Source: Escherichia phage vB_ECOLIGBLB0003
Direction: 5' to 3' (one strand)
Length of the DNA: 64,000 bases
Sequence record: PV654517
In this document: positions 49,671-49,728 of the stretch, one piece after another
Numbering within the stretch: position 1 is the first letter of the stretch
How the letters are laid out: every line of letters starts with the position of its first letter
Program-made: the position numbers and the translations under genes
Notes under the pieces: generated by a model
The model's database searches: none
Seen by the model: the letters and a program-made list of their open reading frames with translations, nothing else
What the model was told of the DNA's origin: nothing

Positions 49671-49728
49671 AAAGTCCTCATGTTATGTAAGTAAGACTAC
49701 TGTAACACAACATGAGGGACTTGTAAAC
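49671..49728 (-). promoter_or_regulatory. Promoter-hairpin cassette B (paralog of cassette A) upstream of alc
   Basis: Minus strand reads GTTTACA, 17 nt, TACAGT; stem AGTCC(C)TCATGTTGTGT pairs with ACATAACATGAGGACT, which contains the GAGGA SD; loop near-identical to cassette A. Confidence 0.55.

Follow-up and report, generated by a model that had tools for sequence, protein, structure and literature searches.

A candidate early promoter nested in a hairpin over the SD of alc, predicted to tie translation to the transcript isoform in T4-like phages

Several genes of phage T4, namely e, soc, 49 and I-TevI, and likewise I-TevII, I-TevIII, segB and Aeh1 mobE, carry a hairpin that sequesters the SD only on long transcripts. 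In the late-gene masks the promoter nearest the gene is placed inside the 5' arm or behind it, so that its transcripts lack this arm and are translated; for e the effect is 100-fold. According to a 2010 review, all genes known to use such promoter-in-hairpin masking are late genes. The masks described so far use late promoters (TATAAATA), with middle promoters at some endonuclease genes, and they delay expression.

A second group of elements in T4-like phages are the promoter-early stem-loop (PeSL) cassettes (Arbiol et al. 2010; Comeau et al. 2014). Their layout comprises an intergenic stop codon, a strong early promoter, a stem-loop, an SD and an ATG, and they occur as dispersed, near-identical copies. 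The stem-loops, which can sit in the stretch from -35 to -10 or overlap these elements, have been described as compact terminators or attenuators; those of T4/PST are drawn just upstream of the promoter, with the SD separate and downstream. SD masking goes unmentioned in both papers. Beyond phages, a report on the sigma-B regulon of Bacillus subtilis (PMC8208050) describes genes that are translationally repressed on one mRNA isoform and active on an isoform from an alternative promoter. There, as we propose for alc, translation depends on the promoter used, but that case concerns a bacterial stress regulon with another sigma factor and no phage temporal programme.

How does the gap between rnlA and alc compare with these systems? 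The window analysed here, a stretch of 64,000 nt, is DNA of a Tequatrovirus (T4-like phage) with about 97% identity to RB18 and GADU22. Its minus strand carries denA, rnlA, alc and pseT.3 in the same order as in T4. The gene for RNA ligase 1 (rnlA, minus strand, 50892-49732) ends in TAA at 49734-49732, and the controlled gene alc, an inhibitor of host transcription, occupies 49670-49164 on the same strand. Read along that strand, the gap is TAA gct GTTTACA AGTCCCTCATGTTGTGT TACAGT agtcttactt ACATAACATGAGGACT tt ATGATG. A first-pass annotation had described here a minus-strand GTTTACA and TACAGT separated by 17 nt, with the -35 immediately after the rnlA stop. Both descriptions are accurate: only 3 nt separate the TAA from the G in front of the -35, and T4 is laid out alike.

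A promoter scan and a motif search both place a T4 early-type -35, GTTTACA, at 49728-49722 (hexamer TTTACA, 49727-49722); the heptamer is invariant among 27 aligned cassettes from many genera. The scan returned TTTACA-17-TACAGT with an extended -10 TG over 49727-49699, all on the minus strand. The 17-nt spacer AGTCCCTCATGTTGTGT occupies 49721-49705, the TG (49707-49706) falls within its last bases, and the -10 hexamer TACAGT, whose T4 counterpart is TATAGT, follows at 49704-49699. Transcription is predicted to start at an A, 7 nt past the -10 (49692), a position derived from the -10 rather than from a mapped 5' end. Since a generic sigma-70 scan of the window was uninformative (81 sites found against 75.9 expected from shuffles), the T4-specific motif GTTTACW-N14-TGN-TANNNT was used instead; it occurs six times, every time on the minus strand, where 0.04 would be expected. 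The SD of alc, GAGGA, lies at 49679-49675 and is followed by two candidate start codons, ATGATG, at 49670-49665. The distance of 4-5 nt given earlier between SD and start fits the first ATG (4 nt). The second, 7 nt from GAGGA, is probably the real start, because the T4 record begins alc there.

The promoter spacer is at the same time the 5' arm of a hairpin. It pairs with the 16-nt 3' arm ACATAACATGAGGACT (49688-49673, minus strand), which contains the alc SD, and the stem has 16 pairs and one bulged C, as had been noted from the sequence; the -10 is located in the loop. In a 91-nt context the hairpin reaches -26.9 kcal/mol (z = -3.9; none of 200 shuffled sequences folds as well), and the pairing of spacer to leader at this cassette has z = -5.8 to -5.9. 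The 5' arm ends 13 nt upstream of the predicted start, and because this arm is the spacer, RNA from the gap's own promoter would be unable to form the stem. Accordingly the 28-nt leader of that RNA folds at only -1.4 kcal/mol, against -23.7 kcal/mol (z = -3.7) for a 76-nt RNA reading through from rnlA, in which the accessibility of the SD is 0.00. The earlier suggestion of structure-gated alc translation therefore holds as far as a stable hairpin over the SD is concerned, but alc's own transcript, lacking the 5' arm, is predicted to be open, and only the read-through RNA to be masked. The gate would be the promoter of origin, that is the transcript isoform, and not a switch inside one RNA. An Rfam search with the cassette gave only a chance miRNA match (E = 0.12, far below the gathering score); without a real family match, a riboswitch or another curated cis-regulatory RNA was rejected.

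These features lead us to a model that we consider probable, if well short of assured: an early promoter is nested in a hairpin sequestering the alc SD, translation is set by the RNA isoform, and Alc is thereby made only during the immediate-early burst. The promoter would be a strong early sigma-70 promoter of T4 type (GTTTACA-N17-TAnnnT with an extended -10), lying inside an RNA hairpin that covers the SD. RNA from this promoter would start about 22-25 nt before the AUG, carry no 5' arm, expose the SD and be translated. RNA entering from rnlA, be it delayed-early, middle or late read-through, would contain both arms, form the 16-bp stem over the SD and be poorly translated. Synthesis of Alc would then end when the early promoter is shut off, although the region is still transcribed. 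The exact start site, the read-through across the cassette and the translational block are steps that we infer.

Set beside the described T4 masks, this model has both familiar and unfamiliar parts. As in e, soc, 49 and I-TevI, the stem covers the SD on RNA from an upstream promoter, and the predicted transcripts of the internal promoter lack the 5' arm. Unlike in the late masks, the promoter at alc is of the immediate-early sigma-70 type, the RNA and the protein of alc are both classed as early, and listed middle promoters do not include one at the position of the cassette. The 5' arm, moreover, fills the spacer between -35 and -10 and leaves the -10 in the loop, and the predicted outcome is reversed: expression early only, and silence on later read-through RNA.

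The resemblance to PeSL cassettes concerns layout. Stop codon, early promoter, stem-loop, SD and ATG form the same module, the promoter matches the T4/PST PeSL consensus TTTACW-N17-TAYWAT at 11 of 12 positions, and cassette B, as we call the one before alc, behaves together with a cassette A elsewhere in the window as a dispersed repeat family. Unlike PeSLs in plastic or ORFan regions, the cassette precedes a conserved gene, alc itself being no ORFan, and its stem differs in build: the arms span the -10, the loop measures 16-22 nt, the SD itself forms the 3' arm, and a tail like that of a terminator is missing. Judged by its sequence, the alc cassette thus appears to combine the layout and repetition of PeSLs with the working of a late-gene mask, using an early promoter. 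In the literature searched, outside which lie early promoter catalogues and the T4 genome review (Miller et al. 2003), no description of an early-promoter mask at alc was found.

Could the stem-loop nevertheless be what PeSL stems are proposed to be, a transcription terminator or attenuator that insulates alc, with the pairing to the SD incidental? PeSL stem-loops from RB49 and phi1 lowered the expression of a lacZ gene placed behind them to roughly the same extent as the rrnB T1 terminator, PeSLs of T4/PST have also been called composite promoter-terminator motifs, and across cassette A the RNA class changes. The stem at alc is nevertheless not followed by a U-tract: the tail is UUUAUGAUG in cassette B and ACACAAAAUG in cassette A, the loop is 16 nt, and A-rich tails such as AAACGAAAUG and ACACAAAAUG recur across genera, as do the large loops of 16-22 nt. 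A terminator scan, which flagged true terminators nearby, was silent at the stem and found no terminator-like site anywhere between rnlA and alc. Lacking a U-run, with a large loop and a negative scan, the element was rejected, on sequence grounds, as an intrinsic (Rho-independent) terminator. Insulation would also leave unexplained why, across 11 genera, the 3' arm keeps to the SD and the remaining stem is free to change. Finally, delayed-early expression has been reported for pseT, a gene downstream of alc, and this may imply read-through across the alc cassette; read-through RNA is in any case to be expected at alc, as no terminator-like site separates it from rnlA and Rnl1 is reported to be delayed-early. 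Taking both sides together, we regard termination as an unlikely purpose of the stem.

The first-pass annotation had proposed a comparison with related phages, in which a lack of conservation or covariation would have told against its reading; both conservation and covariation are clearly present. Alc homologues are present in 1136 phage records; the regions upstream of alc were taken from 15 annotated genomes of different genera and from 51 viral contigs. Of 54 distinct cassettes, 53 contain an early-type promoter, (G)TTTACA-16/17/18-TAnnnT, the spacer being 17 in 44 cases, and the leader from predicted start to ATG measures 19-31 nt in these 53 (21-25 nt in 50). The sole promoterless cassette is that of Gaprivervirus, where an extra ORF precedes alc. 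In VR25, VR20 and their relatives (L010/L034/L035) this additional ORF of 77 aa lies between rnlA and alc and is likewise labelled 'inhibitor of host transcription' in RefSeq; alc begins 10 nt past it without a promoter of its own, and a TGTACA-17-CATAAT site stands upstream of the 77-aa ORF.

Sixteen loci of the first set have a promoter in the gap, and at every one of them the long RNA exposes the SD less (accessibility 0.00-0.45) than the short one does (0.33-0.89). In 35 of the 53 distinct cassettes the spacer pairs with the leader at p<=0.01 relative to shuffled spacers. Conservation of this arrangement before alc extends over 11 genera, and the stems themselves are unrelated in sequence from one genus to another, as in UCUCCGUUUAGUU/AACUAAACGGAGA, UCCUCAUCAG/CUGAUGAGGA and ACCUCUCAUUUU/AAAAUGAGAGGU. 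Stem position 6 is occupied by 7 CG, 5 GC, 12 AU and 9 UA pairs and position 8 by 9 CG, 16 UA, 8 AU and 1 GC. The pairing sets were chosen for complementarity, which raises the share of paired positions artificially and has no such effect on how varied the pair types are. On a model-based alignment, whose pair counts are conservative because it is still partly out of register, covariation scores 0.339, compared with 0.190 after shuffling (reached in 0 of 500), and all slid controls fall below it. Because of the imperfect register we added a test that does not depend on it: with its own partner, an arm forms a duplex of -19.7 kcal/mol on average, with the arms of other lineages one of -10.3, and none of 862 foreign combinations attains the own-partner mean. 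MAFFT followed by RNAalifold predicted no structure on the cassettes because the 3' arms were out of register, and a covariance model failed to re-register them. The support from comparison for a promoter-in-hairpin mask is strong, as far as sequences can speak to it.

The mask is widespread upstream of alc, and it is not universal. It is absent in 18 of the 53 distinct cassettes, among them NHEP11/L048, L043/L061, L050, L062-L064, L047, L074 and those of Acinetobacter and Aeromonas phages. Several of these unmasked cassettes retain an inverted repeat that brackets the -10 and ends short of the SD, so complementary arms flanking the -10 may serve some additional purpose and SD occlusion may not be the only property under selection. 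Since G.U and A.C oppositions are about equally frequent in the stems, the sequences leave it unproven that the sense RNA is the selected structure.

Two further explanations take the hairpin as RNA but give it another task. It could be a stability or processing element, either a 3' stem protecting processed rnlA mRNA or a site for a double-strand nuclease between the cistrons. The stem is indeed long (16 bp), stable and placed exactly at the cistron boundary, and the polycistronic early RNAs of T4 are known to be heavily processed. Yet 16 base pairs with a bulge are short for RNase III, and processing does not account for a 5' arm upstream of the start and an SD in the 3' arm in many lineages, so this role seems improbable to us. 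Alternatively, the stem could couple the two genes: ribosomes stopping at rnlA would melt its base, which pairs with the SD, and alc would follow rnlA translation. That the rnlA stop lies 6-13 nt before the 5' arm suits this idea. A terminating ribosome, however, unwinds about 8-10 nt past its A-site codon, and the 5' arm begins 13 nt past the first base of the stop codon here and 9 nt past it in most other genera, so that no more than 0-1 pairs would open. Coupling is also hard to reconcile with cassette A, which in T4 follows the gene remnant alt.-2, possibly poorly translated. We therefore give it a very low probability and return to a mask set by the promoter of origin.

Cassette A (34539-34604, minus strand) precedes alt.-3 and, as claimed earlier, has the same architecture as cassette B; the two are genuine paralogues, and the changes between them are compensatory. 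Cassette B recurs there as a direct repeat of 54 nt (family D10) at 34549-34602, with 93% identity. The upstream stop is the TAG of the second alt paralogue, whose G is shared with GTTTACA; the 5' arm (34594-34579), the -10 TACAGT (34578-34573), the 3' arm with the SD AAGGA (34562-34547) and the ATG of alt.-3 at 34541 follow on the minus strand. Its stem is a perfect 16 bp. Where A and B differ, the differences compensate each other (C-G to U-A; AGUCC/GGACU to GUUCC/GGAAC), and natural variants at one stem position trace the path C-G, U.G, U-A. The read-through RNA of cassette A folds at -26.9 kcal/mol (z = -5.5), its own-promoter RNA at 0.

The paralogy extends beyond this pair. In Moonvirus and Karamvirus-type phages the alc cassette is present in 2-3 copies per genome, and paralogues of the same architecture stand before regB of PEi20 and before an unrelated small gene of Kosakonia phage 305. 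Such repetition can be read as a sign that the inverted repeat acts mainly as DNA, as a substrate for recombination or gene conversion in PeSL-type shuffling or as a structure affecting the promoter. The two 54-nt copies, 15 kb apart and with unrelated flanks, show 0-4 differences in seven genomes, other genera hold their 2-3 copies, further early promoters carry repeats that flank the -10 but spare the SD, and PeSLs have been proposed as recombination sites. What homologous recombination requires is identity, though, and not self-complementarity, which leaves the compensatory changes within a copy unexplained; the SD, too, is systematically part of the stem. Loops of 16-22 nt make cruciform extrusion unlikely. 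A role chiefly as DNA has, in our estimation, only a faint chance of being correct, and the mask on read-through RNA remains our preferred reading of both cassettes.

The surroundings of cassette A are of interest in themselves. The window holds two full-length tandem alt paralogues on the minus strand (34602-36659 and 36663-38759; 685 and 698 aa), visible as repeat families D1/D2 at a spacing of 2094 nt. In T4 the second copy is reduced to the remnants alt.-1 and alt.-2, which according to the T4 record stem from an old duplication of the beginning of alt. Cassette A is also found upstream of alt.-3 at 296-349 of MG010123.1 (L081), a partial genome flagged UNVERIFIED_ORG and named 'Staphylococcus phage SAJK-IND', in which alt.-3 is annotated as 'prohead core scaffold protein'. 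The record is classed as Tequatrovirus, and either its label is wrong or it is contaminated; a Staphylococcus phage as carrier of the cassette was rejected, MG010123.1 being a mislabelled Tequatrovirus fragment.

Is this a general design of the region, as was first thought? Pairing of the spacer with the SD occurs in the window only at cassettes A (z = -7.6) and B (z = -5.9) and, more weakly, at 43532-43561. This third cassette (43502-43561, minus strand) precedes the gene called 30.8 in T4; its spacer segment UUCCUUUGU (43548-43540) pairs with ACAAAGGAG (43519-43511), covering the SD. Three further promoters had been said to sit at upstream stop codons with inverted repeats nearby. The position at a stop codon applies to 46706-46735 and 60342-60371, but not to 43532-43561, which follows a terminator about 30 nt upstream. 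Conversely, the first two leave the SD free: before cd.2 (46676-46735, minus strand) the repeat GGTAGAG/CTCTACC brackets the -10 and the start site, and at 60310-60371 on the same strand the repeat AGGGTAGTA/TACTATTACCCT includes the -10. At promoter 43168 a repeat likewise surrounds the -10 or the start site with the SD free, and at 61074-61103 (minus strand) no inverted repeat was found.

The surroundings of two of these promoters deserve mention. Directly behind 60342-60371, with a good SD, comes a 22-codon ORF, MFAPYIMAAVMLVCLYLLIKAC (60245-60310, minus strand), which may encode a small membrane peptide; T4 has the same ORF, unannotated, between frd.2 and frd.1 with its ATG at 146083. The promoter at 61074-61103 lies within about 30 nt of a strong intrinsic terminator, GGGGACCCTAGAGGTCCCC plus a T-run (61135-61153, minus strand), so that the promoter without a repeat is one behind a terminator, in contrast to those that abut upstream coding sequence.

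The whole T4 genome gives a similar picture. It contains about 40 early-type promoters, all on the early strand, and some 36 of these have a nearby start codon. Six carry clear SD masks (alc, alt.-3, regB, nrdC.8, motB.2 and a gene of the ndd region) and two, modB and 30.8, a mask that is weaker or of different geometry; at ipII a repeat brackets the -10 only. The claim of a general design is thus true for about one fifth of the early promoters. The cassettes of T4 (AF158101) with their -35 at 166806 (ndd region) and 53942 (nrdC.8) resemble each other (GTTTACAAGACTGTTCTTCCGTGGTACTAT... and GTTTACAAGACCGTTCCTCTGTGGTACTAT...) and may be a second paralogous pair, one outside the window. An upstream terminator was seen at none of the seven T4 promoters with z<=-4 (the six masks and ipII) and at 6 of 27 with z>-2, a difference that is not significant. 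A broader thought is that spacer-arm inverted repeats, whether they mask the SD or only bracket the -10 or start, are common to T4-type early promoters within longer transcription units and may share a function beyond SD occlusion, for instance a structure of the read-through RNA or of the DNA that would silence or insulate an embedded early promoter. We think this generalisation rather unlikely to hold. If it were true, such silencing could add to the shut-off of T4 early promoters, which according to reviews is not fully understood.

Elsewhere in the window, the split nrdB gene contains an ORF of 269 aa for an H-N-H endonuclease (51985-52794, minus strand). Its T4 counterpart, I-TevIII, is a truncated, defective ORF of 97 aa, and we take the longer ORF to be, presumably, full-length I-TevIII. 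A direct repeat of 41 nt, 83% identical, occurs at 51890-51930 in the nrdB region and about 5.5 kb away at 57424-57464, with an internal palindrome GCTGCATG..CATGCAG. The guess that this repeat represents a group I intron core was dropped, Rfam at gathering threshold showing no family over 51000-59000.

Published time-resolved omics of T4 provide an independent view of the promoters. In these data alc, alt.-3, regB, nrdC.8 and motB.2 are early in RNA and protein, alt, alt.-1 and alt.-2 belong to the middle-RNA class, rnlA is early-RNA/late-protein, and pseT.3, vs.1 and motB.1 are middle-protein. The RNA class changes from middle to early exactly at cassette A, which supports an active early promoter there. 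Can the same classes serve to recognise masking? A hand count from the class table puts about 14 of the 19-20 first genes that follow unmasked early promoters in the early-protein class as well, and for this reason the proteome and transcriptome classes were rejected as a test; they confirm promoter activity and do not discriminate masking. The "sandwich" of an early gene between middle or late ones at alc, regB and motB.2 is suggestive only, and frd, as we read the class table, is sandwiched in the same way but lacks such a promoter. A global map of T4 5' ends was not found in the literature.

What would a promoter-decided mask at alc mean for these phages? If true, it extends the principle in T4 from "late-only" to "immediate-early-only" genes: an early-promoter variant with inverted timing, which probably restricts synthesis to the immediate-early burst. 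It would account for a short pulse of expression from one gene within the continuously transcribed series rnlA-alc-pseT. The genes affected (alc, regB and, in variant form, modB) are host take-over functions, for which dose and timing are plausibly important. The finding also points to PeSL-type cassettes as possible carriers of a translational mask in addition to a promoter and an insulator. A mobile masked cassette would impose both transcription and timing on any gene downstream of its landing site.
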